From assembly GCA_041657885.1 (NCBI GenBank), contig JBBABB010000001.1, forward strand, positions 1,094-65,093: a stretch of DNA of 64,000 nt, read 5' to 3'. Position numbers and translations under genes: made by a program. The notes under the pieces were generated by a model that was given only the letters and a program-made list of their open reading frames with translations, had not been told where the DNA came from and did no database searches. Every line of letters begins with the position of its first letter. Position 1 is the stretch's first letter. Source of the DNA: Minisyncoccota bacterium. GTDB taxonomy: Bacteria; Patescibacteriota; Minisyncoccia; Phycocordibacterales; UBA9973. Shown here one piece after another: positions 6,902 to 54,272 of the stretch.

Positions 6902-6929
6902 TACTTACAACTGAATAGTTCGATCAAGA

Positions 6930-23994: not shown

Positions 23995-24546
23995 ATGCCA
24001 AAAATAATTTTAGCAGTCGTAGGATTGCCCGGAGCTGGTAAAACGGAAACAGTCAATTATTTAATAAAGAAAAAAAATTGGCCGAAAGTTTATTTCGGTG
24101 ATGTTACTTTAGATGAAGTAAAGAAAAGGGGGCTTGAAGTAAATGAAGTCAATGAGCGAAAAACCCGAGAAGAAATTAGGAAAAATTTAGGAATGGGTGC
24201 TTATGCTATTTTAAATTTACCAAAGATTAAAAAACTTTTTGAAAACGGAAGTGTGGTAGTTGAAAGTTTGTATAGCTGGGAAGAATATATAGAAGTTAAA
24301 AAAGAGTTTGGAGATGATTTCAAAGTTTTAGCTATATATTCTTCTCCAGAAACAAGAATAGCAAGGTTGACTAATCGTCCTATCCGACCTCTAAATAGAG
24401 AAGATGTGATTTTACGTGATTATGCACAGATACAAAATCTTAATATGACTGGACCTATTGCTCGCGCCGACTGGACTATTGTGAACGAAGGGACAAAGGA
24501 AAATTTATATAAACAAATAGATAAAATTCTAGAAAAAATTATTTAA
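23995..24546 (+). CDS. P-loop nucleotide/nucleoside kinase (CoaE/dNMP-kinase-like), function uncertain
   Basis: Walker A GLPGAGKTE. It sits within the dTMP-synthesis cluster. Confidence 0.45.
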   Translation: MPKIILAVVGLPGAGKTETVNYLIKKKNWPKVYFGDVTLDEVKKRGLEVNEVNERKTREEIRKNLGMGAYAILNLPKIKKLFENGSVVVESLYSWEEYIEVKKEFGDDFKVLAIYSSPETRIARLTNRPIRPLNREDVILRDYAQIQNLNMTGPIARADWTIVNEGTKENLYKQIDKILEKII

Positions 24547-24562
24547 AATTAAAAAATAAAAA

Positions 24563-24598
24563 CCTATACAAACTCTGCCATGGCAGAGTTTGTATAGG
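24563..24598. repeat. REP-like 36-bp palindrome, copy 1; acts as a bidirectional terminator between convergent genes
   Basis: cctatacaaactctgccatggcagagtttgtatagg is a perfect palindrome. Near-identical copies lie at 28823 and 29367. Confidence 0.6.
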
Positions 24599-24601
24599 TT
24601 T

Positions 24602-25102
24602 TTATTTTCTCTTATATTCCGCAAATGACAATCTATATTTATTTTTCTCATCAGCTTCGTGTTTTTCTTCGGAGATTTTTTGCCATTTAGTCATATCAAT
24701 TTGAGGGAAGAAAGTATCGGCATCGGGGAATTCTACTTCCACATGAGTAATATAAAGCTTATCCACTTTGTCCATGAATAGTTTGTATATTTGTCCTCCG
24801 CCGATTATAAAACATTCACTATCTTCCGGTTCTGTTTTTTCAAGTAATTCCATGAGTTCATCTACCCCGTATACTATTTCAATTCCTTCACTTTTAAAAT
24901 CAGCATCTTTTGTAAGAATTATATTTCGGCGATTTGGAAGTGGTCGCCCAATAGATTCAAAAGTTTTTTGCCCCATTATTACTGTGTGTCCACTTGTGGT
25001 CTCTCTGAAATGCTTCATGTCAGCAGGTAAATCCCAAAGAAGGGCATTTCCTTTTCCAATTTCATTATTTTTTCCTATGGCTGATATTATTGATAGAATC
25101 AT
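24602..25102 (-). CDS. folA: Dihydrofolate reductase
   Basis: IAAIGKNNEIG..LPW (substituted LLW here) and GRKTFESIGRPLPNRRNIILT. Confidence 0.85.
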   Translation of the reverse strand: MILSIISAIGKNNEIGKGNALLWDLPADMKHFRETTSGHTVIMGQKTFESIGRPLPNRRNIILTKDADFKSEGIEIVYGVDELMELLEKTEPEDSECFIIGGGQIYKLFMDKVDKLYITHVEVEFPDADTFFPQIDMTKWQKISEEKHEADEKNKYRLSFAEYKRK

Positions 25103-28813: not shown

Positions 28814-28822
28814 ATATAAAAA

Positions 28823-28858
28823 CCTATACATTTTCTGCCATGGCAGAGAATGTATAGG
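28823..28858. repeat. REP-like palindrome, copy 2
   Basis: cctatacattttctgccatggcagagaatgtatagg shares the core CTCTGCCATGGCAGAG with copies 1 and 3 and has compensatory arm changes. Confidence 0.6.
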
Positions 28859-28861
28859 TTT

Positions 28862-29338
28862 TTATTTGTATGGTTTTTCTAATTTGAAAGTTTTAATACA
28901 CTTATCTAATTTAATTTCCTTAATATAATCTTTAAATTCTTTTGGCATAGGAGATGGTCCCACCCAAACACTTTTTTGAATCATAATGTAATTAAATTTT
29001 TTCAAATGCCATCTCAACCATTCCCTATGAGCTTTCTTCTCTGTTGGTACATCAAACATCACCAATAGAGTTTTATCTTTGGAAATATTTTCTGGTCGAT
29101 CGAATTGTTTTAATGAATCAAATTTTCTTTTCACATATTCTTTCCCATATTTTGATAAAACTATTCCCGCCAATTCTTTTTCAATTAAACCTCTTTTCCT
29201 CAATCTACTTATAGTGTTATACATGACATCTTTTTTGTATTTCTTAAAACGGGGGATTCCAAAAAGATTTACCCTAACTCCTTTGTAGTTAAGTTCGGTA
29301 TTCCACAACTCTTCTAATAGTTCACTTACAATAGACAT
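28862..29338 (-). CDS. Small winged-HTH plus Cas2/VapD-like-pattern protein (paralog A)
   Basis: N-terminal YNTISRLRKRGLIEK (wHTH-like) and C-terminal LLVMFDVPTEKKAHREWLRWHLKKFNYIMIQKSVWVG. The ORF at 40491 is a paralog. The gene is bracketed by REP-like palindromes. Confidence 0.35.
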   Translation of the reverse strand: MSIVSELLEELWNTELNYKGVRVNLFGIPRFKKYKKDVMYNTISRLRKRGLIEKELAGIVLSKYGKEYVKRKFDSLKQFDRPENISKDKTLLVMFDVPTEKKAHREWLRWHLKKFNYIMIQKSVWVGPSPMPKEFKDYIKEIKLDKCIKTFKLEKPYK

Positions 29339-29366
29339 ACAATATATATTATATACTCTTGATAAA

Positions 29367-29404
29367 ATCTATACAAACTCTGCCATGGCAGAGATTGTAT
29401 AGAT
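29367..29404. repeat. REP-like palindrome, copy 3, in a divergent promoter region
   Basis: atctatacaaactctgccatggcagagattgtatagat. Confidence 0.6.
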
Positions 29405-29443
29405 TTCTCGAGATTAGATTTTAGTGATATAATTTAACTTAAT

Positions 29444-30145
29444 ATGAAACAAAAATATAAGGGAAAACTAATTGTTATAGATGGGACAGATGGAAGTGGA
29501 AAGGCGACGCAAGTTGCTTATTTAACAAAACATCTTAAAAAGGATGGACATACTGTAAAAATTGTAGATTTTCCCGAATATTATAAAAACTTTTTCGGTA
29601 AGTTTATTGGGCATTGTTTGAGCGAACAATACTATAATTGGCTCAATATACACTCTAAAATCGCTTCTGTGATGTATGCAGCGGACAGGTGGGAATCAAG
29701 TGACGAGATAAGAAAATGGCTTAAAAAGGGCTATATAGTCATTGCCAATAGATATGTTTCAGCCAACCAGATTCATCAAGGTGGTAAAATCAAAAGTGCA
29801 AAAAAACGAGCTAATTTTATGAAATGGCTTAATCAAATGGAATATGAAGTTTTTGGAATTCCAAGACCAGATTTAACATTGTATTTGAGTTTGCCGATAG
29901 ATATTGTTCTCAAGCTTTTGAAGAATCGAGATAGTAGTAAGATGAAAAGAGAATATTTGAAAAAGAAAAAAGATGTTCACGAGAGTGATGTAAATCATCT
30001 AATTAATTCCCGCAAAAGTGCATTAAAGTTAGTTAAAGAAATACCCCATTTTATTAAAATAGAATGTGCCGAAGGTGGCAAAATTTTGTCTCGTGAGGAA
30101 ATTCACGAAATTATTTATCAGAAAGTTAAAAAAATATTAAGATAG
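29444..30145 (+). CDS. tmk: Thymidylate kinase
   Basis: P-loop IVIDGTDGSGKAT, DRY-like motif and LID region. Confidence 0.85.
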   Translation: MKQKYKGKLIVIDGTDGSGKATQVAYLTKHLKKDGHTVKIVDFPEYYKNFFGKFIGHCLSEQYYNWLNIHSKIASVMYAADRWESSDEIRKWLKKGYIVIANRYVSANQIHQGGKIKSAKKRANFMKWLNQMEYEVFGIPRPDLTLYLSLPIDIVLKLLKNRDSSKMKREYLKKKKDVHESDVNHLINSRKSALKLVKEIPHFIKIECAEGGKILSREEIHEIIYQKVKKILR

Positions 30146-30148
30146 TTT

Positions 30149-30763
30149 ATGAAATTTGAAGAAAATGTATTTAAAAACATAAAAGAGACTGTAGAAAAAA
30201 AGGTTGAAAAAGCTGTAGCAAATTATTTTACCGTTGGACAGAACTTGGAGCAAGATTTGACTGACGATGCTTTAAGGGGGGAGATATTCTCTAAACTTGA
30301 AAATGCAACAATAAAAGTGAATACATTAAATGAATTTCGTCTTGCCTTAGAAAAATTAAAAAATCTGCGAATTTTTAAGGATTTTGGGGAAAAACAAATT
30401 AATGAGTTGATTTCTCATGAGAATGCCCACGCTAACAAGGCAGAAGAGTTAGGGGCTGAACATAAGTCTTTCAAAATAGTTATTATAAAAAATAATGAAA
30501 ATGATTATGCTCTGTCAACGACAACGGCAGAAATTTATATTCCTGAAGAATGGGATGCAAAAAAGAAAAGAGAAGTTTTGGTACAAATTTTTAAGGCTCC
30601 AGAAATTTATGGAGGTAGTAATATGTCTTCTTACGATAAGAAAATGTTACTTGAAATTTTATACGAAGAAAGAGAGGCTTTATTGAAAGAAAGAGAAGTT
30701 TTGTTGAAAGAAATTAAAGATAGGCAAAAAGATAATGAAATAATTAAATCAAATGAAAATTAA
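30149..30763 (+). CDS. Hypothetical coiled-coil protein with an HExxH motif (possible small metallopeptidase)
   Basis: LISHENAHANKAEELG has HExxH spacing. There is no further homology, so confidence is low. Confidence 0.3.
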   Translation: MKFEENVFKNIKETVEKKVEKAVANYFTVGQNLEQDLTDDALRGEIFSKLENATIKVNTLNEFRLALEKLKNLRIFKDFGEKQINELISHENAHANKAEELGAEHKSFKIVIIKNNENDYALSTTTAEIYIPEEWDAKKKREVLVQIFKAPEIYGGSNMSSYDKKMLLEILYEEREALLKEREVLLKEIKDRQKDNEIIKSNEN

Positions 30764-31175
30764 AATTAAAAAATTAAAAGAAGGAGCCAAATTGCCGAAA
30801 TATCACCATCCGGGAGATGTGGGGATGGATATGTATGCTATGGAGACAGTTGTGGTTCCACCAGGTGGGCATGTTAGACTCTATCATGGGTTTGCTCTAG
30901 AATTTCCGGATGGATATGCAGCTGTTATAATGGATAAAAGTAGTATTTCTAAAGCAGGATTAACCAAAATGGGTGGAATTTTTGATGCTGGTTTTCGTGG
31001 AGAATATAATACTCATCTTGTTAATCTTTCAGATAAATCTTATACAATAGAAGAAGGAGATAAAGTATCTCAACTTATAATTTTTCCAGTAAGTATAGTA
31101 GAATTAGAAGAGACTGATATTTTGAGTGAATCGGCTAGGGGAATAGATGGTTTTGGTTCAACAGGGAGGAAATAA
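30753..31175 (+). CDS. dut: dUTP diphosphatase
   Basis: dUTPase motifs (DKSSISKAGL; GIFDAGFRGE). Confidence 0.8.
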   Translation: MKIKIKKLKEGAKLPKYHHPGDVGMDMYAMETVVVPPGGHVRLYHGFALEFPDGYAAVIMDKSSISKAGLTKMGGIFDAGFRGEYNTHLVNLSDKSYTIEEGDKVSQLIIFPVSIVELEETDILSESARGIDGFGSTGRK

Positions 31176-31184
31176 ATTCCCCTC

Positions 31185-32975
31185 TTGAGGGGTGGACTCT
31201 GTAATCAGAGGACGGGGTGGAAAATCATTATGAAAGAAAAGATACAAAAATTAATACAAGAGATATTGAAAAAACTCGATATAGATGAGTGTGATTTTTC
31301 AGTTGAACATCCAGATGATTTTAAAAATGGAGATTATTCGACAAATGTGGCGATGGTTTGTGCTAAGCAATTGAAAACTAATTCAAAGGAATTTGCAGAG
31401 AAAATAGTTATAGAATTAAGGGGTTTACCGAAGCAAGGCTTCGGTGGAATTGAAAAAATGGAAGTTGCCGGTCTTGGATTTATAAATTTCTATTTATCAC
31501 GAGAATTTTTTACAGATAGTATCAAAGAGATTTTGGAACAAAAAGAAGATTGGGGAAAGAATAATTTATTAAAAGGGAAGAAAATTATGGTTGAATATAC
31601 AGACCCGAATCCTTTTAAACCCTTTCATATAGGGCATTTAATGGCGAATACAATAGGTGAATCAATATCTCGAATTGTGGAATTCTCTGGCGCAAAAACC
31701 ATAAGAGCGAATTATCAGGGTGATGTAGGTCCCCATGTGGCAAAAGCAATATACGGGCTTATGAAATTTGGAATGCCTGATTTATCGAAGTCTATATCAG
31801 AACAAGCTCAATATATTGGTGAATGTTATTCAAAGGGAAGTAATCTATATGATACAGATGAAAATGCAAAAAAAGAAATAGATGAAATAAATAAAAAAAT
31901 TTACGACAAGACAAATCCCGATATAAATAAAATTTATGATTGGGGGAAAAAGGCAACTCTTGATGCTTTTGAAGAAATTTATAAAATTCTGGGAACAAAA
32001 TTTGATTACTATTTCTTTGAAAGTGAAATGACAATAATAGGTGAAAAAATTGTTAGGGAAAATATTGGAAAAGTTTTTGATGAATCAGATGGCGCAATAA
32101 TATTTCACGGTGAAAACTATGATAAAAAACTTCACACTCGTGTTTTTATAAATTCTCAAGGATTGCCGACTTATGAGACAAAGGAAATTGGTCTCACCGT
32201 TACAAAGTTTGAAAAAGAAAACCCTGATATTTCAATAATAACAACAGCGATAGAGCAAGCTGAATATATGAAAGTTGTCCAGAAAGCAATTTCTATAATG
32301 CATCCAAATCTTGAATCAAGAATGAAACATATTACGCACGGCATGATGCGCCTTTCAACTGGGAAGATGTCTTCAAGAAAAGGTAATGTCATTACCGGTG
32401 AGTCACTTTTACGTGATTCGATGGATGTTGTATATGAAAAAGTCAAAAATCGTGAACTAACAGATGAAGAAAAAAAGAAAATTTCTGAGATTGTTGGAGT
32501 TGCGGCGCTCAAATATTCAATACTTCGTTCATCACTTGGTAGTGATATTGTTTATGATTTTGAAAAATCAATTTCTTTTGATGGAGATTCAGGTCCATAT
32601 TTACAATATACTGCTGTTCGCGCAAATTCTATTTTGTTGAAAGCAGATAGTTTTAAAAAAGTAGGAGTTGGAATTCCAGAAGAAATAACTGAATTAGAAA
32701 AAATATTATATCAATTTCCTGAAGTTGTAGAACAATCATATAATCTTCTTGAACCTCACCACATCGCCACTTATCTCACCCAACTTGCAAGTGCATTTAA
32801 TACTTTCTATGGAAACACAAAAATATTGCCTGCCCGCCCTCACGATGGTTCGGGAGCAAGTGGGGAGAGTGGCAATAAATACATGAGCTATCATCTTGAA
32901 CTCGTAAAAGCGTTTTATCAAACCATGAAGAATGGTCTCTGGCTACTAGGTATTGAAACACCAGAAAAAATGTAA
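31185..32975 (+). CDS. argS: Arginyl-tRNA synthetase
   Basis: HIGH motif (PFHIGHLM) and anticodon-binding DALK-like C-terminus. The likely start is ~31230 (MKEKIQKL). Confidence 0.9.
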   Translation: MRGGLCNQRTGWKIIMKEKIQKLIQEILKKLDIDECDFSVEHPDDFKNGDYSTNVAMVCAKQLKTNSKEFAEKIVIELRGLPKQGFGGIEKMEVAGLGFINFYLSREFFTDSIKEILEQKEDWGKNNLLKGKKIMVEYTDPNPFKPFHIGHLMANTIGESISRIVEFSGAKTIRANYQGDVGPHVAKAIYGLMKFGMPDLSKSISEQAQYIGECYSKGSNLYDTDENAKKEIDEINKKIYDKTNPDINKIYDWGKKATLDAFEEIYKILGTKFDYYFFESEMTIIGEKIVRENIGKVFDESDGAIIFHGENYDKKLHTRVFINSQGLPTYETKEIGLTVTKFEKENPDISIITTAIEQAEYMKVVQKAISIMHPNLESRMKHITHGMMRLSTGKMSSRKGNVITGESLLRDSMDVVYEKVKNRELTDEEKKKISEIVGVAALKYSILRSSLGSDIVYDFEKSISFDGDSGPYLQYTAVRANSILLKADSFKKVGVGIPEEITELEKILYQFPEVVEQSYNLLEPHHIATYLTQLASAFNTFYGNTKILPARPHDGSGASGESGNKYMSYHLELVKAFYQTMKNGLWLLGIETPEKM

Positions 32976-32983
32976 GCTAAAAA

Positions 32984-33011
32984 GTAGTAAGTAGTAAGTA
33001 GTAAGTAGTAT
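32984..33011. repeat. GTAGTAA heptamer tandem array (about 4 copies) abutting the start codon of the next gene
   Basis: gtagtaa gtagtaa gtagtaa gtagtATG. Confidence 0.7.
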
Positions 33012-34746
33012 GGAATATAAATCAGAAAATCGAATATGCCAAAACTGCAAAAATGACTTCACTATTGAGCCAGATGATTTTTTGTTTTATGAAAAAATTA
33101 AAGTTCCCCCGCCTACATTTTGTCCAAATTGTAGACGAATCAGAAGATGGGTGTGGAGGAATGAAAGAACTTACTATAAAAGAAAGTGTAATGTGCCTAA
33201 CCATTCTGAGGAAATTGTCAGTCTTTATAGTCCAGAGCAACCATTTTTTGTGTATGACCAAAAATATTGGTGGTCTGACCAATGGGACCCCTTAGATTAC
33301 GGTGTGGATTATGATTTTTCGGAATCATTTTTTAAACAATTTTCGAAACTACTTAAGAATATTCCATTGATAACTTTATCAAACACCGAGGCTATAAATA
33401 GTGAATATTGCAGTTCTACTGCTTGGAATAAGGATTGTTACTTAATAAGTGCAAGTGGCTGGAACGAAAAAGTTTTATACTCTAATAGACTAGCAAAAAA
33501 TAAAGATTCGATGGATTTATATATAGCTGATAATAACGAATTGTGTTATGAGGATTTATATTGCAATAAATGTTACCAAACTTGTTACTCTAATCAGTGT
33601 GAAGGATGTAGTGATTCAATGTTTTTACACAATTGTCGTAATTGCTCCAATTGTTTTGGATGTACTAATTTAATGGGGCAAGATCATTGTTTTTTCAATA
33701 AGAAATTACCTAAAGAAGAATATAAAAGAAAAATTGCACAGCTTAATCTAGGAAGTTCAAAAGAAATTCAAAAGATAAAAAGAAAATTTTACGAAGAAAT
33801 ATATCTTAATACAATAAATAAATACTCCGACCAAATAAATTGTATCAATTCAACTGGTGACCACTTGCGTAACACAAAAAATTGCCACGAGTGTTATGAT
33901 TTTCCCGGTGATAATAATGAAGATTGTAAATTTGTAGATTGGGGGGGTTTTAAATCAAAAGATATATATGATACTGGGCCAGGTGTCGGCTGGAATACTG
34001 AACTTGTCTATGAGGGGGTAGATAATAACGACGACTCAAATATGATAGGTTGTATCGTCTGTTATAATTCAAATAATTTGTTTTATTGTATGAATTGTCA
34101 TGGTTCTTCAAATTTATTTGCTTGCATAGGGCTTCGTAATAAAAAGTACTGTATTCTTAATAAACAATATACAAAAGAAGAGTACGATGAAATAATTTTA
34201 AAAATAAAAAAACAAATGGAAGAAATTCCTTATATTGATAGAAGAGGAATGATTTATAAATATGGAGAATTTTTTCCATCAGAATTATCGCCATTTGCTT
34301 ACAATGAAACAGTAGCCCAAGAATATAACCCATTAACCAAGGAGCAAGCTCTAGAACAAGGTTACAAATGGAAAGACAAAGAAGAAAGAAACTATCAAAT
34401 AGACATTAAGAACGAAGACATTCCTGATAATATTAAAGATATAACTGATGATATCATCGGTAAAGTCATTGAATGTGGTCATAAAGGAGAATGTAACCAA
34501 CAATGTACCGAAGCCTTCAAGATAATTCCCGAAGAACTTCAATTCTACCAACGGATGAACCTTCCTCTACCTCGTCTCTGTCCTAATTGTCGTCATTATG
34601 AACGACTCTCCCAACGTAATCCTCTTAAACTCTGGCACCGTTCCTGTATGAAAGAGGGATGTAATAATGAATTTGAAACTAGCTACTCACCAGATCGACC
34701 TGAGATAGTATATTGTGAACGTTGTTATCAGAATGAAGTGTATTAA
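33010..34746 (+). CDS. Large cysteine-rich protein with duplicated N- and C-terminal zinc ribbons and internal Cys-rich repeats (unknown function)
   Basis: N-terminal FLFYEKIKVPPPTFCPNCRRIRR resembles C-terminal LQFYQRMNLPLPRLCPNCRHYER. The interior has many Cys clusters. Confidence 0.5.
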   Translation: MEYKSENRICQNCKNDFTIEPDDFLFYEKIKVPPPTFCPNCRRIRRWVWRNERTYYKRKCNVPNHSEEIVSLYSPEQPFFVYDQKYWWSDQWDPLDYGVDYDFSESFFKQFSKLLKNIPLITLSNTEAINSEYCSSTAWNKDCYLISASGWNEKVLYSNRLAKNKDSMDLYIADNNELCYEDLYCNKCYQTCYSNQCEGCSDSMFLHNCRNCSNCFGCTNLMGQDHCFFNKKLPKEEYKRKIAQLNLGSSKEIQKIKRKFYEEIYLNTINKYSDQINCINSTGDHLRNTKNCHECYDFPGDNNEDCKFVDWGGFKSKDIYDTGPGVGWNTELVYEGVDNNDDSNMIGCIVCYNSNNLFYCMNCHGSSNLFACIGLRNKKYCILNKQYTKEEYDEIILKIKKQMEEIPYIDRRGMIYKYGEFFPSELSPFAYNETVAQEYNPLTKEQALEQGYKWKDKEERNYQIDIKNEDIPDNIKDITDDIIGKVIECGHKGECNQQCTEAFKIIPEELQFYQRMNLPLPRLCPNCRHYERLSQRNPLKLWHRSCMKEGCNNEFETSYSPDRPEIVYCERCYQNEVY

Positions 34747-35141
34747 GAATAAGTAGTATGTAGAATGTAGAAAGTAATATTAAAGCAATTAAGAATTAAA
34801 ATGAAAGAAGAAAAAAGGGCTCAGCACATCAATGTTGAGCCCATAACCTTCGAGGGGTAGAGTAAGTGGTGTTTGTTTTTAAACCCCAGAAAGGTTTATT
34901 CCTCGACATCAGTAGACCGTTTTTTACGGCCGTCGGGGTTTGCCTTGGGCAGTGTCTGCAAGGAACAGATTTAATGTTATATATTCCCCAAGGAGATATA
35001 TAGAACAAAAAGATTGCCCTAATAAGGCTGAACTATTATGTTCTGCTCGCATACCGTTAGGCGCATCTCAAAAGGGCAATCTATTTAATATATTACATAA
35101 ACCTATGAAAAAAGCAATATTTCTGTTAAAATCATCCATAT

Positions 35142-38100
35142 ATGGATAAGAACAACGAAAAGAGCCCACCCGCCTCCGCACAAGGCTATGGCGAGGCAAA
35201 GTCAGCGTTACCCGCCTCTGCAGAACGCTCCGGCGTGGCAAAGCGAGAAGAGGCAATTTTACAATTCTGGAAAGAAAATAAAATTTTTGAAAAAAGTTTA
35301 GAAAAAGAAGCACCAAAAGGAAAGTATGTTTTTTATGATGGTCCTCCTTTTGCTTCTGGTCTTCCTCATTATGGACATATACTTGGCAGTACGGCTAAAG
35401 ATGTAATTGGCAGATATAAAACTATGTGCGGATTTAATGTTCCACGACGTTGGGGTTGGGATTGTCATGGTTTACCAATTGAAAATATTGTTGAAAAAGA
35501 TTTGGGAATTTCTGGAAAGAAAGCCATTGAAGCACTGGGAATTGATAAATTCACCGAACATGCGCGCAGTAAAGTTTTAACTTATGTAAGCGAATGGAAA
35601 AAGACGATAGATCGTATGGGGCGCTGGGTAGATTTTAATAATTCTTACAAAACTATGGACAACACTTTCATTGAAAGTGTTTGGTGGGCTCTTGGTGAGA
35701 TGAATAAAAAAGAATTACTTTATGAAGGAGTCCGAGTGCTTGCTTATTGTCCTCGTTGTGAGACACCGATTGCAAATTCTGAAATTGCCATGGATAATAG
35801 TTATAAAGATATTACAGATATTTCTGTATATGTGAAATTCCAACTTACAGAGGCTTCACATTCTCAAATTTCTTCGTGCTTTACCCTAAAGGGCTCCGAC
35901 GCGACGAAGAAATTAGAAAATGTTTTGACTATTTATCTATTGGCTTGGACGACGACTCCGTGGACGCTTCCCGGGAACACTGCTATTGCTATCAATAAAA
36001 AATTAAATTATGTATTAGTAAAAAATAAAATAGAGACAGGAGAAGAAATATTAATAGTGGCAAAAGAACTATTTGAAGGATTAAAAAATAAATTTAACAA
36101 TCCTGAGATAGTAAAAGAAGTGAAAGGCAGTGAACTTATAGGTCTTTCTTATGAACCATTATTCTCATATTATAAAAATAAAGACGTGGCAAAAAATCCA
36201 AATATTTGGAAAATTTGGCATGCCGATTTCGTAACGCTTGATAAGGGAACGGGTGTTGCTCATCAGGCTCCAGCTTTTGGAGAGGATGATATGGACCTTG
36301 CCAAGAAAAATAATGTTCCATTTATTCGTCATGTTGAACCGAATGGTGATTTCTCAAAAGAGATTACCGATTTCCCAAATGTAAAAGTCAAACCCAAAGA
36401 AGACCATCAATCTACAGATATCCTTATTATCAAACACCTTGCCCATGCTGGGCTTCTGTTTGCCAAAGAAAAAATTATTCACTCATATCCGTATTGTTAT
36501 CGTTGCGAGACACCGCTTCTTTACTATGCGTTGCCATCTTGGTTTGTGAATATTCAAAAAGTTAAAAATGATTTAGTAAAAAAAGGTGAAGAGATGAATT
36601 GGATTCCAGCGCATTTGAAAGAAGGACGTTTCAAAAATACAATGGAAAGTGCGCCTGATTGGACCATATCTAGGAATCGTTATTGGGCAAGCCCACTTCC
36701 TATTTGGAAAAATAAAGAGGGTAGGGTGATGGTAGTAAATTCACTTGAAGATTTAAAAATAAAAACAAAAAAATCAGGGAATAAATATTTTGTGATGAGG
36801 CATGGAGAATCAGAAGGAAATCTCAATGGACTTGTCAGTTCTTCTTATGAAGAAGATGATAATTTAACGGAAAATGGAAAAAGACAAGCTGAAGAAGCAT
36901 CTATAGGGTTAAAAAATAAAAAAATTGATTTAATTTTTTCTTCTCCCATTAAAAGAACCAAAGAAACAGCTGAAATTATGTGTTCCGCATTAGGTTTAGA
37001 TAAAAAAAATATTATTATAGATGATAGAATTCGTGAAATTTCTATTCCTGATTATGAAGGAAAAACATGGACAGAGTTTCGTAAAGATTTTCCTAATACA
37101 ATAGAAAACTTTTATCATATTAAAGAAAACAATGAATCATACAATGATGTTAAAAAAAGAGTTATGAATTTTCTTTATGAAATAGAAGAAAAATATAAAG
37201 ATAAAAATATTCTGATTGTTACTCATGCAGGTCCAATATGGCTTGCAATTTCAGGGGCTATGGGTTTTGATGCTAAAGAATCACTGAATATAAAGAATAT
37301 AGATACTTCTGGTAAAAATGCGGAATATCGAGAATTAGATTTTACTTTTATTCCTCACAATGAAAATTATGAGCTTGATTTACATAGGCCATATATTGAT
37401 TCTGTAACACTTGTTGATGAAAAAGGGGAAGAATATAAAAGAATTCCAGAGGTTGTGGATTGTTGGTTTGAGTCTGGCTCAATGCCATTCGCGCAAGACC
37501 ATTATCCATTTGAAAATAAAAATTGGCAAAAAGAAAATTTCCCAGCAGGATTTGTGGCTGAATATATAGCTCAAACAAGGACATGGTTTTACTATACTCA
37601 CACTATTTCAACAATACTTTTTGGGCATGCTCCATTTGAAAATGTGGTAACGACAGGAACTATTTTGGCAGAGGATGGGAGTAAAATGTCAAAATCAAAA
37701 AATAATTATCCAGACCCTTGGCTTTTGTTTGATAAATATGGAGTGGATGCTCTTCGTTTTTATCTGATGTCTAGTACTTTAATGAAAGGGGAAGATGTAA
37801 ATTTTTCTGAAAAATTAGTTCAAGAAGTTGCCAGTAAAATAGTTAACCGTTTTGACAATGTCATGGCTTTTTATGAATTGTATAGGAGTAAAGAAGTAGA
37901 AAGTAGTAAGGAAAAAATAGTAAGTAAAAATATTTTAGACCAGTGGATAATCGCGCGAACTTCACAATTTATTAATGAAGTGAAAGACAGTATGGAAATT
38001 TATGATATGGCACAAGCTGCAAAACCTTTTGATTTATTTGTTGAAGATCTCTCAACTTGGTATTTGCGTCGTTCGCGTGAAAGAATAAAAAATGGAGATG

Positions 38101-38789
38101 AAAATGCAAAACAGACACTATATTTTGTTTTAAAAACCGCCATTCAACCCTTCGCACCATTTATGCCTTTTATTGCAGAAGATATTTGGCAGAAATTAAA
38201 ATTTAATTCTGATCCAGAGAGTGTCCACTTAACAAACTTTTTCTTAGATGTTGAAACTAAAAAAATTGATAATAAAATTATCGAAGAAATGCAAAAAGCG
38301 CGTGAGGTTGTGACGCTTGGATTACAAGCTCGGCAGAAAGCGGGGATTCCGGTGAGACAACCGTTAAAAGAATTACGAATTACGAATTACGAATTACGAA
38401 AAGAATACGAGGAGATAATAAAAGATGAATTAAATGTAAAAGAAATTAAAATAATTAAAGGCGAAGAAGAGAAAGTTGAATTGGATACAAATATTACAGA
38501 AGAATTAAAGAAAGAAGGGCAATATCGCGAGCTTGTTCGAGCCATACAAGATATTCGTAAGAAAAATGGATTAAATCCAAATGATATTGTAACTCTCCAG
38601 ATTTCTGCTTCAACAGAAGGACAAGAATTGATAAATAAATTTAAAAAAGAATTAATGAAGGCAGTTAGTGCAAAAGAAATACAAATTAAAGAAAATAATG
38701 GGGTACCTGCCCGCAATACTTCTGGTACAGCTGATGCAGGCGGGGAAATAAAAATTGATGAATTAATATTTATAATTAGTCTTATATAA
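35142..38789 (+). CDS. ileS: Isoleucyl-tRNA synthetase carrying an embedded histidine-phosphatase-superfamily domain
   Basis: Class I motifs HYGH and KMSKS, plus WTISRNRYW and DCWFESGS. A ~190-aa insert between these two blocks (~36760-37340) carries RHGESEGN and THAG motifs. Confidence 0.9.
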   Translation: MDKNNEKSPPASAQGYGEAKSALPASAERSGVAKREEAILQFWKENKIFEKSLEKEAPKGKYVFYDGPPFASGLPHYGHILGSTAKDVIGRYKTMCGFNVPRRWGWDCHGLPIENIVEKDLGISGKKAIEALGIDKFTEHARSKVLTYVSEWKKTIDRMGRWVDFNNSYKTMDNTFIESVWWALGEMNKKELLYEGVRVLAYCPRCETPIANSEIAMDNSYKDITDISVYVKFQLTEASHSQISSCFTLKGSDATKKLENVLTIYLLAWTTTPWTLPGNTAIAINKKLNYVLVKNKIETGEEILIVAKELFEGLKNKFNNPEIVKEVKGSELIGLSYEPLFSYYKNKDVAKNPNIWKIWHADFVTLDKGTGVAHQAPAFGEDDMDLAKKNNVPFIRHVEPNGDFSKEITDFPNVKVKPKEDHQSTDILIIKHLAHAGLLFAKEKIIHSYPYCYRCETPLLYYALPSWFVNIQKVKNDLVKKGEEMNWIPAHLKEGRFKNTMESAPDWTISRNRYWASPLPIWKNKEGRVMVVNSLEDLKIKTKKSGNKYFVMRHGESEGNLNGLVSSSYEEDDNLTENGKRQAEEASIGLKNKKIDLIFSSPIKRTKETAEIMCSALGLDKKNIIIDDRIREISIPDYEGKTWTEFRKDFPNTIENFYHIKENNESYNDVKKRVMNFLYEIEEKYKDKNILIVTHAGPIWLAISGAMGFDAKESLNIKNIDTSGKNAEYRELDFTFIPHNENYELDLHRPYIDSVTLVDEKGEEYKRIPEVVDCWFESGSMPFAQDHYPFENKNWQKENFPAGFVAEYIAQTRTWFYYTHTISTILFGHAPFENVVTTGTILAEDGSKMSKSKNNYPDPWLLFDKYGVDALRFYLMSSTLMKGEDVNFSEKLVQEVASKIVNRFDNVMAFYELYRSKEVESSKEKIVSKNILDQWIIARTSQFINEVKDSMEIYDMAQAAKPFDLFVEDLSTWYLRRSRERIKNGDENAKQTLYFVLKTAIQPFAPFMPFIAEDIWQKLKFNSDPESVHLTNFFLDVETKKIDNKIIEEMQKAREVVTLGLQARQKAGIPVRQPLKELRITNYELRKEYEEIIKDELNVKEIKIIKGEEEKVELDTNITEELKKEGQYRELVRAIQDIRKKNGLNPNDIVTLQISASTEGQELINKFKKELMKAVSAKEIQIKENNGVPARNTSGTADAGGEIKIDELIFIISLI
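38371..38398 (+). repeat. GAATTAC heptamer x4 in-frame inside ileS
   Basis: gaattacgaattacgaattacgaattac encodes ELRITNYEL. Confidence 0.6.
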
Positions 38790-38790
38790 T

Positions 38791-39234
38791 ATGTTACCAA
38801 TTAAGCAATGTTATGGAATTGTTGTTGTTCTTAAAGAAGAACAATATAAATTTCTAATTCTAAAACAAGAAGATACTAAAGATAATAATAACTGGAGTTT
38901 TGCAAAAGGTCACGCAGAAGAAGGTGAGACACCAAAAGAAACAGCGATTAGAGAGTTGGAAGAAGAAACGGGAATAACAAAAATTGATATTCTTGATTTT
39001 CCACTTATTCATGAAGAATATGAGCTTATTTATCATGATGGGAAACATTTAAAAGTGAATGGATATTTTATAGGCTTTGTTAAAGAAAAAAAAGTTAAAA
39101 TTGATGAAAAAGAACTTAATTCTTATAAATGGGCAACATATGAAGAAGCTTTAAATACTTTTAGTCATGAAAGTCGCAAACAAGTGTTAAAAGAAGCTCA
39201 AAAATATATAAATAAAAATGGACTCACAAAATAA
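38791..39234 (+). CDS. NUDIX hydrolase
   Basis: Nudix box GHAEEGETPKETAIRELEEETGI. Confidence 0.75.
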   Translation: MLPIKQCYGIVVVLKEEQYKFLILKQEDTKDNNNWSFAKGHAEEGETPKETAIRELEEETGITKIDILDFPLIHEEYELIYHDGKHLKVNGYFIGFVKEKKVKIDEKELNSYKWATYEEALNTFSHESRKQVLKEAQKYINKNGLTK

Positions 39235-39850
39235 AAAATTAGTTATATTTGATTTTGATGGAGTATTGGTGGATACTTTGATTATGCACTATAAGATAAG
39301 TAGTAAAGTTAATAAAGGCATATCTCTCAACACGTTTAAATCATTTTTTGAGGGAAATATTCACAAAGCAATTAGGTTTGACGGAACACCAAAAATTCGA
39401 CACCATAATTTCAATGAGCTTTATAAACAACATACTCGTGAGTTGGTAATCCCTGAAATATTAAAAAATATTTTAAAAAATCTATCTGAAATGTATAACT
39501 TAGTAATAATTTCTTCGGCAGATACTTTTTTAATAAATGATATTTTGAATAAAGAATGTGTTGGAGTTTATTTCCAAGATATTTTGGGGGCAGATATGGC
39601 TCGTGATAAAACTGAAAAGATAAAAACTATTCTAAATAAATATAATATTGGATCTGAGAATTCAGTATTTGTTACTGATACATCTGGGGATGTCAGAGAA
39701 GGTTTTAAATGTGGAGTAAAATCTATCGCAGTAACGTGGGGATTCCATGACAGAAAAACGCTAGAAAACGCTAATCCTATCGCTATTATTGATGACCCAA
39801 GAGATTTATTGGGTGCGATAAAAAATGCCTGCCCCGTAGGAGATTTTTAA
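39218..39850 (+). CDS. HAD-superfamily hydrolase
   Basis: Motif I LVIFDFDGVLVD. Confidence 0.75.
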   Translation: MDSQNKKLVIFDFDGVLVDTLIMHYKISSKVNKGISLNTFKSFFEGNIHKAIRFDGTPKIRHHNFNELYKQHTRELVIPEILKNILKNLSEMYNLVIISSADTFLINDILNKECVGVYFQDILGADMARDKTEKIKTILNKYNIGSENSVFVTDTSGDVREGFKCGVKSIAVTWGFHDRKTLENANPIAIIDDPRDLLGAIKNACPVGDF

Positions 39851-39879
39851 AATCTCGTTCGGGGTGTTAAAATAGGGAT

Positions 39880-40446
39880 ATGAAAAAAGTATTTATGGTA
39901 CATGGATTTAAGGGAGAGCCAAATGGAGGTTGGCGACCTTGGCTTATGGGGGAACTTGCAAAGAAAGATATATACGCTTGTGCTTTACCAATGCCAAATC
40001 CTAATGCACCAGATAAAGAAGAATGGGTAAAAACAATAAAAGATGCAGTTGGAGAACCCACAGAAGAAATATTTTTGATTGGGCATTCTCTTGGTGTTCC
40101 TGCTATTTTAAGATATTTAGAAACTTTACCAAGTGAATCAAAAATTGGTGGAGCTGTCCTTGTGTCTGGTTTAATATATGAGATTAAAGAAAATGGTTAT
40201 GATTCTCTGAATAGTTTCTTAAACACACCATTTGATTTTAAGAAAATAAAAAGTGTTTGTGAAAATTTTGTAGTAATTCATGGTGATAATGATAAATCTG
40301 TTTCATTTGAAGAAGGGCAAGCTCTTTCTAAAATACTTTATTGTAATTTAATTTCTATACCTAATGGTAGCCACTTAAATGGATCTGCTAGGTTTTATAA
40401 ATTACCTGAAGCACTGGATTCTTTACTAAAAATGATAAAAAACTAA
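39880..40446 (+). CDS. Alpha/beta serine hydrolase (YdeN/RBBP9-like)
   Basis: GHSLG nucleophile elbow. Confidence 0.55.
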   Translation: MKKVFMVHGFKGEPNGGWRPWLMGELAKKDIYACALPMPNPNAPDKEEWVKTIKDAVGEPTEEIFLIGHSLGVPAILRYLETLPSESKIGGAVLVSGLIYEIKENGYDSLNSFLNTPFDFKKIKSVCENFVVIHGDNDKSVSFEEGQALSKILYCNLISIPNGSHLNGSARFYKLPEALDSLLKMIKN

Positions 40447-40490
40447 CATAACGACTTTTCGCGGTCGTCAAAAAGTGTTATACTTATTAT

Positions 40491-40982
40491 ATGAACAATA
40501 AATATAGAAATACTTTTTCTGAAGAGCTAATTGCTTTTTTGTTTTCGTGTAAATCTCATAAAATGCGAAGAGCGATTCTATATGAATTTGCTAAAAAAAG
40601 ATTTGAGATGGAAAAGTCTGTTTATAATCAGAATATATATCGTCTAAAAAAGAATGGTTTTTTAATTCAGGACGAAGATGTTTTTTTTCTTTCTTTAAAG
40701 GGGGTTTCTTATTACACTAATCCGTATAGACATATTAAAGAAAAAATAGATAAGAAAAATAAAATAATTATTATTTTTGATATACCGGAAAATAAAAGAA
40801 AAGTTAGAGAATGGATAAGAAGCCAAATAAAATTTTGGGATTTTGAAATGATCCAGAAGAGTGTATGGGTGGGGTATGGGCCATTACCATCTGAATTTAT
40901 GAGTCGTTTAAGGATGTTGGGAGTATATGATGGAGTGAGGATTTTTAACGTACAAAGTAAAAATAGTACCGTAACGAAATAA
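40491..40982 (+). CDS. Small winged-HTH plus Cas2/VapD-like-pattern protein (paralog B)
   Basis: IIIIFDIPENKRKVREWIRSQIKFWDFEMIQKSVWVG matches paralog A (28862-29338). It is flanked by ~21-bp direct repeats (40460-40481 / 40985-41004). Confidence 0.35.
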   Translation: MNNKYRNTFSEELIAFLFSCKSHKMRRAILYEFAKKRFEMEKSVYNQNIYRLKKNGFLIQDEDVFFLSLKGVSYYTNPYRHIKEKIDKKNKIIIIFDIPENKRKVREWIRSQIKFWDFEMIQKSVWVGYGPLPSEFMSRLRMLGVYDGVRIFNVQSKNSTVTK

Positions 40983-41040
40983 TGCGGTCGCGAAATAGTG
41001 TTATGGTTTAGTTTTAGGAAATTTGTGCTAAAATAAAGGT

Positions 41041-41433
41041 ATGAAAACTATTTTAGTTGATGCTGTACATTGTTTTATAATAGAAAGAAAAGGAAAATTT
41101 GTCGTTTTTGCAGATATGTATAAATTACTTGAAGAGTACCTGAACAGAAAGATTGTCTTAACTGGTGCAAATGACGAGGAAATAAAAAAATTTGAATTAG
41201 ATAATATACCTTATCAATACTTTACTCTAAAACATAACCCTGAAAAAACTAATCCTGAGTATTATAAAACACTACTGGCTAACCTAAATTTAAAGGAAAA
41301 TGGAGTAATTTATTTTGAACATAATATAAATGCTGTTAAAAGTGCTCAATCTATTGGAATGAATACTTATCATTATGATAATGATAAAAAAGATTTAGAA
41401 AGTTTAAAAAATTTTCTAGACGATAATTTGTAA
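41041..41433 (+). CDS. Hypothetical, HAD-like small protein
   Basis: ILVDAVH near the N-terminus; weak evidence. Confidence 0.3.
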   Translation: MKTILVDAVHCFIIERKGKFVVFADMYKLLEEYLNRKIVLTGANDEEIKKFELDNIPYQYFTLKHNPEKTNPEYYKTLLANLNLKENGVIYFEHNINAVKSAQSIGMNTYHYDNDKKDLESLKNFLDDNL

Positions 41434-42087: not shown

Positions 42088-43974
42088 ATGCCCGAAGATA
42101 GTAAAAATAAAATTGAAGATGTAAAAAGACACCTCTATGACCCAAATGATAAATCAATGACCCACCAAAGAGAGGGTATATTACACCAGATAAGTCACAA
42201 TGTACCGCTTGAATGGAAAGAAGATAGTCAAACTAAATCGGAAGATAATATGAAGAATAAATTTAAAAAACCACCAGTATCAATATTTAAAAAGTTTTTT
42301 GTTGTCTCAATTATTTTTTTTATAGGAGCTTTGGGTTTTGCTTTCTATAAATTTTCTAATAATGATGTATCCGTATCAAGCGATAAGATAGATATAGAGG
42401 TTATTGGTAATTCTTTTACTAAAGGTGGAGATGAGTTGCCTCTTCAAATTGAAATTACTAATAATAATAATGCTAGTCTTGAACTCGCAAACCTTGTTAT
42501 AGAATATCCCAAAGGGGCAGATGATAGTGTTAATGATGTTGTTCGTCTACCTCGAGATGCTATAGGCACAGTAAAGCCCGGGGAAAGTATTATTAGAAAT
42601 ATTAAAGTTAAACTTTTTGGAGAAGAGAAATCAATTCGTAATATTAAAGTTAGCTTAGAATATCACCCCGAGGGTTCTAATGCAATTTTTACTAAAGACA
42701 AATTATATCCTGTCACAATAAGTTTGGCGCCGCTGTCTCTCATCATAGTGGCTCCTACTAGTATCTCTTCTGACCAGCCTATTTCATTTGAGATAACAGC
42801 TACATTAAATACTTCTTTACCAAACGAGAATACAATGTTGCAAGTGTCATACCCTAATAATTTCGTTTTTGATAGTGCTATACCAGCTCCTTCCTTAGGA
42901 AATTCTACTTGGGACCTTTCATCTATTACGGTCACAAACCCAGTAACCGTTGAAGTTAAAGGGCGTCTCATAGGTGAGGATGGCGATGAACAAGTATTTC
43001 ATGTTTATGCGGGGACAACCAATCAAACTAACCGGTCAGTAATAAATGTAATTTACAGTTCTATTTTGCAGAAAATTTTAATAACAAAGCCATTCCTTGA
43101 AGCGCATATTTTAGTTAATGGTCAAGACCAGACAGAGTACGCTGTTTCGGGAGGAACAACAGTTAACGGAGAGATAGCTTGGGCAAATAATTTACCAACA
43201 CGAATAACAGATGGACAAATTATTGTAAGTTTATCTGGTAATGTTTTTGATAAGAGTATGGTTAATTCAACTAATGGTTTTTATGATTCAGCGAATAATC
43301 AAATTATATGGGACAAGAATTCAGTCTCTGAATTATCAGAAATAAATCCCGGGGAAAAAGGAACAGCTTCATTTAGCTTTAAAATACCTTCTCTCGTTGG
43401 TTTATTAAATACTATTAAAGACCCACAAGTTTCTATTAAGGTCAGTATCAAAGGGAGACAACCACAACTTGGTTCTACTTATACTGATGTGAATAATTTT
43501 TCTGAAAAAGTGGTAAAGGTATTGTCTGATTTTCAGATTGCTTCATCTGCAACTTATCTTTTGGGAAGCATACCACCAAAAGCAGAAACTGAAACAAAGT
43601 ATACGGTTACTTGGACGCTTTCAAACTCTGCAAACAATATATCGGGAGCTCAAGCACGTTCTACATTACCAATATATATAAACTGGACTGGTGTTACAAC
43701 TGGAGAAAATGAAAATGTGACCTATAATGAAGTTTCTCGTGAAGTAATCTGGAATATAGGTTCGGTTCTTCCCAATACAGGGATAGATTCAAATCGCGAA
43801 GTTTCTTTTATTATTTCTCTTAAACCATCTTTATCTCAAGTAGGTAGTGTCCCTCAACTTATGAAAGAGATTTATCTTTCAGGGATGGATTCATTTGCTA
43901 ATGCTTTAATTAAAAATACTCGTGGCGTCATTACAACCTCATCAATTGGTGGTGATGGAAGGGTTACACAGTAA
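42088..43974 (+). CDS. Membrane-anchored cell-surface protein (unknown function)
   Basis: Single TM after ~75 aa, then a long beta-rich extracellular region. Confidence 0.4.
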   Translation: MPEDSKNKIEDVKRHLYDPNDKSMTHQREGILHQISHNVPLEWKEDSQTKSEDNMKNKFKKPPVSIFKKFFVVSIIFFIGALGFAFYKFSNNDVSVSSDKIDIEVIGNSFTKGGDELPLQIEITNNNNASLELANLVIEYPKGADDSVNDVVRLPRDAIGTVKPGESIIRNIKVKLFGEEKSIRNIKVSLEYHPEGSNAIFTKDKLYPVTISLAPLSLIIVAPTSISSDQPISFEITATLNTSLPNENTMLQVSYPNNFVFDSAIPAPSLGNSTWDLSSITVTNPVTVEVKGRLIGEDGDEQVFHVYAGTTNQTNRSVINVIYSSILQKILITKPFLEAHILVNGQDQTEYAVSGGTTVNGEIAWANNLPTRITDGQIIVSLSGNVFDKSMVNSTNGFYDSANNQIIWDKNSVSELSEINPGEKGTASFSFKIPSLVGLLNTIKDPQVSIKVSIKGRQPQLGSTYTDVNNFSEKVVKVLSDFQIASSATYLLGSIPPKAETETKYTVTWTLSNSANNISGAQARSTLPIYINWTGVTTGENENVTYNEVSREVIWNIGSVLPNTGIDSNREVSFIISLKPSLSQVGSVPQLMKEIYLSGMDSFANALIKNTRGVITTSSIGGDGRVTQ

Positions 43975-44032
43975 TTAAGAATTAAGAATTAAGAATTAAG
44001 AATTAAGAATTAAGAATTAAGAATTAAGAATT
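43973..44032. repeat. AATTAAG heptamer tandem array (7 full copies plus 1 partial) filling the intergenic spacer upstream of glyQS
   Basis: Exact 7-nt period; every unit contains TAA. Confidence 0.8.
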
Positions 44033-44035
44033 AAA

Positions 44036-52424: not shown

Positions 52425-52484
52425 CCCCCTCCTCAATAAGGAGGGGGTTTTGGATTTCCCAGACAGTGCTTTAGGCGCTGTCTG
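52425..52484 (+). terminator. Tandem GC hairpins after rpsR (ccccctcc-tcaataa-ggaggggg then cagacag..ctgtctg)
   Basis: The first hairpin is followed by TTTTGG. Confidence 0.5.
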
Positions 52485-54233: not shown

Positions 54234-54234
54234 T

Positions 54235-54272
54235 TAAGAATTAAAAATTAATAATTAAAAATTAAATGCAAA
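54235..54272. repeat. Degenerate AATTAAN heptamer array (about 5 copies)
   Basis: aattaag aattaaa aattaat aattaaa aattaaa. Confidence 0.6.

Follow-up and report, generated by a model that had tools for sequence, protein, structure and literature searches.

Short PaaX-type winged-helix/Cas2-like proteins bracketed by palindromes as putative self-repressing regulators in a Minisyncoccota genome

Results

Two paralogous genes with flanking palindromes

In this study, we closely examined two paralogous genes, here named A and B, in a stretch of 64,000 nucleotides (nt) (the window) from contig JBBABB010000001.1 of a Minisyncoccota bacterium (assembly GCA_041657885.1), which has a G+C content of about 30-37%. 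The initial annotation had described both gene products as winged helix-turn-helix (wHTH) proteins with a Cas2/VapD-like pattern, each encoded on a repeat-flanked mini-cassette wedged into housekeeping genes. Both open reading frames (ORFs) exist at the coordinates and on the strands listed in Table 1, and exact copies of the two proteins occur in a Candidatus Paceibacterota metagenome-assembled genome. Their paralogy was borne out by BLASTP (37% identity in the C-terminal 57 amino acids [aa], E 6e-13) and tblastn (32% identity across 129 aa, E 6e-17); no third family copy was found by tblastn in the 64-kb window. The shared motif F-D-(V/I)-P...REW(L/I)R...MIQKSVWVG is present in A and B, and its residues F, D, P, R, W, R, S, W, and G are invariant in alignments of 55 and 49 members. 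The invariant set includes the Asp following strand 1 (D96 in A and D97 in B).

Gene A is flanked on both sides by a palindrome, as had been reported. The upstream copy consists of the core CTCTGC-CATG-GCAGAG and the outer arms CTATACA/TGTATAG; the downstream copy is identical to it in core and arms, lies between runs of A and T, and was scored as terminator-like (20-pair stem). The 14-nt A-type core occurs at three sites in the window (six strand matches versus 0.16 expected). The third of these palindromes, which follows folA, is terminator-like on both strands and fits a terminator or boundary role; it is absent at the equivalent position in related loci and was therefore rejected as a conserved feature. 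The ~21-bp direct repeats described around B were found as well: GCGGTCGnnAAAnAGTGTTAT lies at 40461-40481 and 40984-41004 (two matches versus 0.03 expected), with no others in the window. A broad regulon in the window was ruled out, since just three A-type and two B-type sites are present in 64 kb.

At the A promoter, the right palindrome arm occupies the expected -35 position. The extended -10 element of the divergent tmk gene recurs at two related loci (L005 and L006). No Shine-Dalgarno sequence is visible before A, tmk, B, or the HAD-like gene downstream of B, and these genes are therefore probably leaderless. The -10 or extended -10 boxes of all four lie 6-10 nt from the ATG, which suggests that leaderless transcripts are common in this organism.

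Table 1. Genes, predicted domains, palindromic sites, and promoter elements at the A and B loci (window coordinates)
Feature	Position	Strand	Remarks
Paralog A gene	28862..29338	minus	ORF, 158 aa
Paralog A winged helix (predicted)	residues ~24-75, about 29114-29338	minus	AlphaFold model
Paralog A Cas2-like domain	residues ~88-158, 28865-29077	minus	Pfam and AlphaFold model
Upstream palindrome of A (putative operator)	29365..29406		Dyad 29385/29386; divergent A/tmk intergenic region
Downstream palindrome of A	28819..28862		Abuts A stop codon; 6 nt past NUDIX stop, convergent junction
Third A-type palindrome, perfect	24559..24602		Between convergent ends of P-loop kinase-like gene (23995-24546) and folA (24602-25102)
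-10 box TATAAT of A promoter	29348..29353	minus	9 nt before ATG; read from sequence
Extended -10 (TGATATAAT) of tmk	29425..29433	plus	10 nt before ATG 29444; 42 nt from palindrome dyad
Paralog B gene	40491..40982	plus	ORF, 163 aa
Paralog B winged helix (predicted)	residues ~9-76, 40515-40718	plus	AlphaFold model
Paralog B Cas2-like domain	residues ~90-153, 40758-40949	plus	Pfam and AlphaFold model
Upstream site of B, imperfect inverted repeat	40448..40484	plus	ATAAC(G)ACTTTT-CGCGGTCGTC-AAAAAGTGTTAT
Extended -10 (TGTTATACT) of B	40476-40484	plus	6 nt before ATG; right arm GTGTTAT forms part of it
Downstream site of B	40971..41004	plus	GTAACGAAATAAT-GCGGTCGCG-AAATAGTGTTAT; overlaps B stop codon
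Extended -10 (TGCTAAAAT) of HAD-like gene	41026..41034	plus	21 nt after downstream B site; 6 nt before ATG 41041

Domain family and predicted fold

PF20803, the model of the central Cas2-like domain of PaaX, matched A with 49.8 bits (E 3.9e-13) and B with 44.2 bits (E 2e-11) at a cutoff of 24. The Cas2 models PF09827 (A 26.5, B 22.4, cutoff 23.8 bits) and TIGR01573 (A 26.8, B 22.2, cutoff 24.5 bits) placed A just above and B just below their cutoffs; overall, Cas2 models gave E values of 4e-8 to 1e-5. The full-length PaaX model TIGR02277 reached 20.9 bits versus a cutoff of 264.55 and covered profile positions 35-147 of 279. No match to PaaX_C (PF08223) was obtained for the two proteins, which are 158 and 163 aa long.

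The AlphaFold models, for which alignments of the family served as input, are confident (pLDDT 81.9 for A and 86.7 for B), and both comprise a three-helix winged helix (H-H-H-wing), in agreement with the wHTH proposed earlier, followed by a beta-alpha-beta-beta-alpha-beta domain (DSSP on the A model: E91-95, H99-114, E118-121, E124-127, H133-141, E148-152; equivalent elements in B). In Foldseek searches against the PDB, Escherichia coli PaaX (8a39) was the best full-length match of both proteins, with ~165 aligned columns and a probability of 0.97-1.00 but a TM score of just 0.37-0.39. Rv0674 (3kfw) ranked high for both as well. For A, 8a39 and Rv0674 came first and Cas2 next; for B, 8a39 (E 7e-4, probability 1.00) was followed by the MarR family and Cas2. 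Many Cas2 chains were matched with a probability of 0.9-1.0, a target-normalized TM score of 0.44-0.57, and 20-34% identity, and VapD HP0315 was matched weakly (probability 0.5-0.8). When PDB sequences were searched with a profile, PaaX was not recovered and weak Cas2 and MecI/BlaI matches were returned instead, the latter reflecting a faint similarity of the wHTH profile (E 0.002).

Pfam, the Cas2 hidden Markov models, AlphaFold, and Foldseek thus all back a ferredoxin-like, Cas2-type fold of the C-terminal ~70 aa, as had been suggested. The interpretation as a whole was supported in part: the combined architecture is already listed as that of PaaX-type repressors over their N-terminal two thirds, which makes the family a relative of regulators and not an orphan Cas2 or VapD nuclease. 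An orphan Cas2, as which NCBI annotates many members, or a VapD-like toxin would be a nuclease unrelated to the repeats, and the palindromes would be ordinary terminators or REP-like repeats. A does exceed both Cas2 cutoffs, the PADLOC Cas2 models yield the best Cas2 E value (4e-8), Foldseek finds both Cas2 and VapD, and two of the window palindromes are terminator-like. However, B stays under both cutoffs, PF20803 scores about twice as high as the Cas2 models in A and B alike, and a wHTH is fused to the N terminus. Moreover, no CRISPR array was found in the 64-kb window and no cas1 among the called neighbors in the window and related contigs, as had been stated before, and there was no conserved adjacent small partner ORF (antitoxin) in the window and related loci. 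We consider this explanation highly improbable. The domain architecture itself is already known from Pfam (PF20803), and proteins of this kind are automatically annotated as PaaX or Cas2.

Size and distribution of the family

A word-indexed search yielded 961 homologs of A. The best 120 (73-97% identity) have 155-180 aa, most of them 156-160, and belong to Paceibacterota, Nomurabacteria, or Patescibacteria wherever the source names the organism. The sources label A homologs "PaaX" or "CRISPR-associated endonuclease Cas2." For B, 88 homologs were found. A profile search of 1.84 billion cluster representatives (50% identity) returned 4737 clusters at E<=1e-3, and nearly all of the best 150 have 150-190 aa, i.e., the short two-domain form. 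A phage or defense origin was ruled out: no relatives were found in viral contigs, nothing significant in PHROGs, and just generic Cas2 and WH models matched in PADLOC.

For comparative analyses, 80 related loci (L numbers below) were sampled from GTDB species representatives; genome scans were seeded with A-only and B-only alignments, as a mixed A+B alignment was too diverse. At least two to three paralogs per genome were present in 10 genomes among these 80 loci.

Position and anatomy of the flanking sites

Flanking repeats, described for A and B only, turned out to be a general trait of the family. An upstream palindrome with a GC-N4-GC core is present in 67 of 77 testable relatives, where it keeps a fixed spacing from the ATG (mostly 39-52 nt, up to about 110 nt) and abuts a -10 box. 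A downstream copy just past the stop codon was found in 60 of 78 relatives, with its dyad mostly 8-50 nt past the stop, and the two dyads are 538-585 bp apart in most cases. Both copies occur in 13 of 14 A-ortholog loci. The B orthologs in L165-L169 keep the upstream site (cores GCGGTCGC, GCGATCGC, ACGATCGT, and GCTATCGC; right arm (A/G)TGTT(A/G)), a second site follows directly after the stop in 5/5 B-ortholog loci with DNA, and the element TGnTAnAAT is kept in L165-L169 before whichever gene comes after B. Even distant metagenomic relatives (26-45% identity) can have matching flanks: a repeat of 10 nt or more common to both sides was seen in 21 of 55 versus 4% in mismatched controls, with cores including ACGATCGT, CGCGGTCGCG, and ACGGCCGT. 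Away from the flanks, 22 palindrome matches were counted in 850 kb, most of them unrelated, and a few of them flank further family genes.

The anatomy of 130 sites was resolved by distance from the dyad. Positions 2-6 are conserved in sequence (TCTGC-N4-GCAGA), positions 7-9 form a 3-nt spacer that is A/T/C-rich, asymmetric, and 49-63% complementary, and positions 10-16, the outer arms, differ widely between genes yet are 84-99% symmetric; the full palindrome measures ~34 bp. Outer arms upstream and downstream of one gene agree at 5.0 of 6 positions, compared with 2.6 (at most 3.2) when partners are shuffled. G:T pairs are not overrepresented among the mismatches, and the palindromes have no Rfam match. 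The unpaired internal segment, the lack of wobble bias, and the lack of an Rfam match favor a bipartite protein-binding site over an RNA hairpin; an RNA hairpin or riboregulator was ruled out on these grounds and by the location of the upstream copy upstream of the -10 box.

The upstream sites stand in register with promoters. On the gene side, 63% have a TATAAT-like hexamer at +32 or +23/24 from the dyad, compared to 16-19% in the controls, for which the distal flank of upstream sites and both flanks of downstream sites were taken, and a small -10 peak is found at +42 on the distal flank of upstream sites. This fixed promoter position, together with the covariation described below, is the behavior of cognate operators and differs from that of REP-like repeats or cassette ends, as which the repeats had been interpreted.

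Downstream sites lie at 33 convergent and 25 co-directional junctions (58 scorable). T-runs are moderately enriched after downstream sites (56% and 53%, versus 30-38% at upstream sites). Such numbers could point to a boundary or insulator protein that marks and blocks transcription at the operon junctions of a compact genome. As a roadblock or a protein-assisted terminator, it would act on the two ends of its own gene and on a few further junctions, 24559-24602 among them, and autoregulation would be a by-product. The sites close on both gene ends, copies 1 and 2 in the window score as 20-pair terminators, and family genes lie within housekeeping arrays (tmk, ileS-recO, and grpE-dnaK), all of which would suit this role. 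Still, T-runs are absent at about half of the downstream sites, the asymmetric spacer weakens the hairpin, the very few sites away from family genes leave few junctions to be served, and the upstream sites are clearly promoter-associated. We thus regard a primary boundary function, although plausible, as unlikely; it overlaps with the autorepression model proposed below.

Covariation of proteins and sites

The outer-arm classes follow the sequence of the recognition helix. Across the family, the helix SLRGTMS goes with the arm ..TAACA, NSLSGTLSY with ..AAGTA, GSLKSGIS with TGCTACC, and the B-type helix VYNQNIYRL with GTGTTAT. Among A orthologs, KESIYNT is paired with TGTA(T/G)AG, QKSFRDT with TGTAGTA, KKSxQIT with TGTTGCC, SKSVRxT with TGTAGCA, and QRSIRTT with TGTGTCA. 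Between proteins of comparable identity outside the helix (0.76 and 0.72, respectively), helix identity was 0.71 for pairs with the same arm versus 0.40 for pairs with different arms.

Within the Cas2-like domain, residue 122 (beta-2) is the most informative of all alignment columns on the central dinucleotide of the site. Lys or Arg at this position accompanies an AT center at 107/109 sites, and Gln or His a G/C-containing center at 20/20 sites, a hint in the alignments that the Cas2-like dimer may sit on the dyad. A link between changes in the core and helix alpha-1 of this domain was considered as well but did not hold, as it is broken by L169 and L071.

The promoter register of the upstream copy and the covariation of palindrome and helix, neither of which is expected of unrelated terminators, largely refute the orphan Cas2/VapD reading.

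Conserved genomic neighborhoods

As the initial annotation had stated, both genes reside in housekeeping clusters, A next to DHFR (folA), thyA, glyA, CYTH, NUDIX, tmk, dut, and argS, and B next to ileS, NUDIX, HAD, Ser_hydrolase, HAD-like, and recO genes. A orthologs (65-81% identity) have tmk/dut/argS on one side and glyA/thyA/folA on the other in at least 14 species. In 6/6 loci examined, B orthologs (54-82% identity) have ileS on one side and, on the other, recO and then a gene for a 630-aa protein, and in other genomes the ileS-recO slot is occupied by an A-like paralog (54-59% identity). The positions of A and B are old and stable. Since they are conserved among species sharing just 54-82% protein identity, the implied insertion of mobile mini-cassettes into housekeeping clusters is unsupported.

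Gene content around the B orthologs is variable (L165-L169 and window positions 38791-41433): NUDIX, HAD, Ser_hydrolase, Lactamase_B, and an unknown gene of 265 aa are gained, lost, or moved, while ileS and recO are fixed. The Ser_hydrolase gene, for example, is upstream of B in the window and downstream of B in L165. Other family members lie between grpE and dnaK-dnaJ (L013 5965-7111, L026 6001-7079, and L020 6001-6477). L013 and L026 carry a convergent pair of family genes from two different subfamilies, the second with its own B-like palindrome (ACAAGTATTT-AGCGACCGC-AAATACTTGT).

A selfish or formerly mobile mini-cassette would explain several of these features. Here, palindrome-gene-palindrome would be the element and the wHTH-Cas2-like protein a site-specific nuclease or recombination factor, functionally analogous to the REP-associated RAYT, with A and B as domesticated or fixed insertions. 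Tight bracketing by paralog-specific palindromes throughout the family, several orthogonal paralogs per genome in diverse contexts, the invariant Asp at the Cas2 catalytic position, the variable gene content around B orthologs, and the solo palindrome at 24559-24602 are in line with such an element. We nevertheless doubt this explanation and give it little credence: the synteny of A and B is deep, there is no transposase or recombinase nearby, and viral contigs hold no relatives. The palindromes are not dispersed either (about 20 non-flanking matches in the 850 kb), no target-site duplications were noticed, and the upstream copy is in fixed register with a promoter. Terminal-inverted-repeat orientation of the two copies was checked separately and showed no bias (17 inverted, 17 direct, and 17 ties; central 4-mer 14 inverted versus 8 direct).

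Discussion

A model of self-repression by short PaaX-type proteins

We propose, as the reasonably probable explanation, that A and B are minimal self-repressing regulators of the PaaX type, each bracketed by two cognate predicted operators. The proposal builds on the domain family, the fold, synteny, the position, anatomy, and conservation of the sites, and the protein-site covariation; from these we infer binding, dimerization, repression, and a role of the downstream site. Both proteins would combine a winged-helix DNA-binding domain with a Cas2-like dimerization module that possibly also contacts DNA, and they lack the C-terminal effector-binding domain of PaaX. As a dimer, each would bind its own ~34-bp palindrome, the recognition helices reading the paralog-specific outer half-sites (10-16 bp from the dyad on each side, about 26 bp apart) and the Cas2-like dimer lying over the GC-rich core (TCTGC-N4-GCAGA in A-type sites and CGCG/GCGATCGC in B-type sites).

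Binding at the upstream site would occlude the gene's own, probably leaderless promoter and result in negative autoregulation. The sequence is consistent with autorepression at a palindromic operator in the own promoter, as the palindrome abuts the -10 box in 67/77 relatives and covaries with the helix. The upstream site of A is also directly upstream of the divergent tmk promoter, so that A may modulate tmk together with dut-argS further downstream. Since the downstream palindrome retains the core and arms of the upstream site unchanged, it is probably a target of the same protein. In B, and in the A orthologs with tmk downstream (L021 and L025), it precedes the next promoter and could couple the next gene to the regulator. 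At convergent junctions, represented in the window by the NUDIX gene facing A, it might stop transcription from both directions, as a terminator or roadblock, and/or form a loop with the upstream site. Looping partner, roadblock or terminator, and regulator of the neighboring gene are thus candidate roles of the downstream site.

Several observations weigh against this model. The PaaX N-terminal model PF07848 has no match at E<=1 in A or B, despite the wHTH predicted in both AlphaFold models. The A and B promoters were not called by a consensus promoter scan because their -35 elements are weak. Downstream sites overall show no promoter signal or -10 enrichment, and this, with the similar shares of the two junction types, means that a role as operator of the next gene is not general; as a general promoter operator, the downstream site was accordingly rejected, the role holding just for B orthologs and the A orthologs L021 and L025. 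The near confinement of the sites to the surroundings of their own gene would be unusual in an ordinary transcription factor, and without an effector domain there is no evident signal to be sensed. The invariant Asp at the Cas2 catalytic position is not obviously needed for a pure dimerization role. The independent lineages behind the residue-122 correlation number only about two, namely, the A2 clade and L056. Finally, the model draws on sequence and structure predictions, and the binding itself is predicted.

Comparison with known systems

Winged-helix regulators of similar build are known from other families. Lrp/AsnC and MecI/BlaI proteins are autoregulated via palindromes at their own promoters. 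Like A and B, Lrp/AsnC proteins are about 150-160 aa in length and join a (w)HTH at the N terminus to a beta-alpha-beta-beta-alpha-beta oligomerization domain at the C terminus, and they give weak full-length Foldseek matches; MecI/BlaI proteins share the weakly similar winged-helix profile. A and B, however, have no AsnC/RAM or MecI/BlaI Pfam match and reach a full-length TM score of 0.25-0.30, and they resemble these families by architectural analogy without belonging to them.

In Cas1-Cas2 complexes, the Cas2 dimer is aligned along duplex DNA. Like A and B, Cas2, especially of type II-A, has a ferredoxin-like beta-alpha-beta-beta-alpha-beta fold with strand 1 starting h-h-h-(F/Y)-D-x-P and the Asp conserved, in addition to the identity and the profile scores at or near cutoffs given above. 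A and B differ from it by the fused wHTH, the absence of cas1 and CRISPR arrays, and their conserved housekeeping synteny. The Cas2-like domain is best explained as the putative dimerization and DNA-contact module of a repressor. A more far-reaching possibility is a self-contained orthogonal module, in which a Cas2-homologous dimer reads, and perhaps nicks, the GC core of a ~34-36-bp palindrome and the fused wHTH provides lineage-specific addressing. We deem this improbable. If it were true, the family would be a free-living, repeat-recognizing relative of Cas2. It would then either be a micro-element of a selfish or mobile kind or indicate how the first association of Cas2-like proteins with palindromic repeats arose.

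VapD toxins of the VapXD type are stand-alone endoribonucleases of the Cas2 fold whose gene is paired with that of a small antitoxin, whereas A and B carry a fused wHTH and no conserved small partner ORF. In RAYT/REP systems, a small gene for a REP-associated tyrosine transposase is bracketed by copies of a lineage-specific palindrome, the REP hairpin; the likeness to A and B is one of description only. Neither an HUH (His-x-His) nor a Tyr motif, as in RAYT, is among the invariant residues of A and B. Also unlike REP, the palindromes are not dispersed (three A-type and two B-type sites per 64 kb), and the upstream copy is in promoter register.

The closest comparison is PaaX (COG3327/TIGR02277; PF07848, PF20803, and PF08223; PDB 8A39, 3L09, and 3KFW), which consists of a wHTH, a motif for dimerization, and a phenylacetyl-CoA-binding domain at its C terminus, represses its own promoter, and binds the widely spaced inverted half-sites TGATTC-N27-GAATCA (reviewed in PMC9493321). 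Full-length paaX is seldom found outside the paa context (2026 survey, PMC13186573). PaaX, the top full-length structural match, shares with the A and B models an N-terminal winged helix followed by a Cas2-like central domain, and its N27-spaced half-sites parallel the outer half-sites of A and B, which are about 26 bp apart from center to center. In contrast, PaaX has about 305-315 aa versus about 160 aa in A and B, which lack its five-helix phenylacetyl-CoA effector domain. No paa genes were found among the neighbors in the window and more than 20 related loci. Unlike the site of PaaX, the A and B sites additionally contain a conserved GC core at the dyad and are accompanied by a predicted second operator past the stop codon, and the family differs from PaaX by its many paralogs per genome with diversified specificity.

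Significance of the family

Members of the candidate phyla radiation (CPR)/Patescibacteria have tiny genomes with very few recognizable transcription factors, and to our knowledge none of their regulatory circuits has been dissected. A large family is now provided with a concrete, testable model and a predicted operator for almost every member. The pairing of helix residues 36-44 with the outer half-site may represent a natural recognition code, and there is a hint that a Cas2-fold domain can join in sequence-specific DNA recognition at the dyad. The model further suggests local control of thymidylate synthesis genes (tmk and its neighbors) and of the variable hydrolase/recO locus in Paceibacterota. 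It also flags a systematic annotation error, in that members are routinely misnamed "Cas2" or "PaaX" and "CRISPR-associated endonuclease Cas2" is assigned in genomes without CRISPR. Our literature search found no paper that connects PaaX to Cas2 or to CPR taxa. The short CPR form, its expansion into multiple paralogs, the predicted operator-gene-operator arrangement, in which specificities co-diversify rapidly, and the hinted reading of the dyad by a Cas2 fold appear to be undescribed so far.

Further features of the window

The ileS gene next to the B locus (35142-38789) encodes 1215 aa and carries an inserted histidine phosphatase domain, with the RHG motif 'YFVMRHGESEGN' in its translation; in ileS orthologs, PF00300 (His_Phos_1) is likewise nested within tRNA-synt_1. 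Downstream of argS, positions 33010-34746 encode a Cys-rich protein of 578 aa with many CxxC pairs. Homologs of this protein (32-52% identity) adjoin A-family genes in four related loci (L006, L008, L009, and L010), and in L010 the Cys-rich protein gene is itself bracketed by the A-type palindrome.

A SAM riboswitch (RF00162, 56.1 bits) was identified at 6918-7024 on the plus strand, upstream of the ORF 6930-7367. Two more families of GC-rich hairpin repeats, probably terminators, are located in the right third of the window, namely, CCCTCCCC...GGGGAGGG at 52425, 54786, 63285, and 63936 and GGCACCTCCCCTTCGCAGGGGAGG at 50597, 52144, and 61118. Furthermore, perfect or near-perfect tandem arrays of heptamers, including (AATTAAG)x8.9, (AAGTAGT)x4, and (GAATTAC)x4.4, occur at 43973-44034, 32982-33010, 38370-38400, 54232-54266, and 63597-63627, and at least two of them lie directly upstream of start codons (ATG 44036 and ATG 33010).

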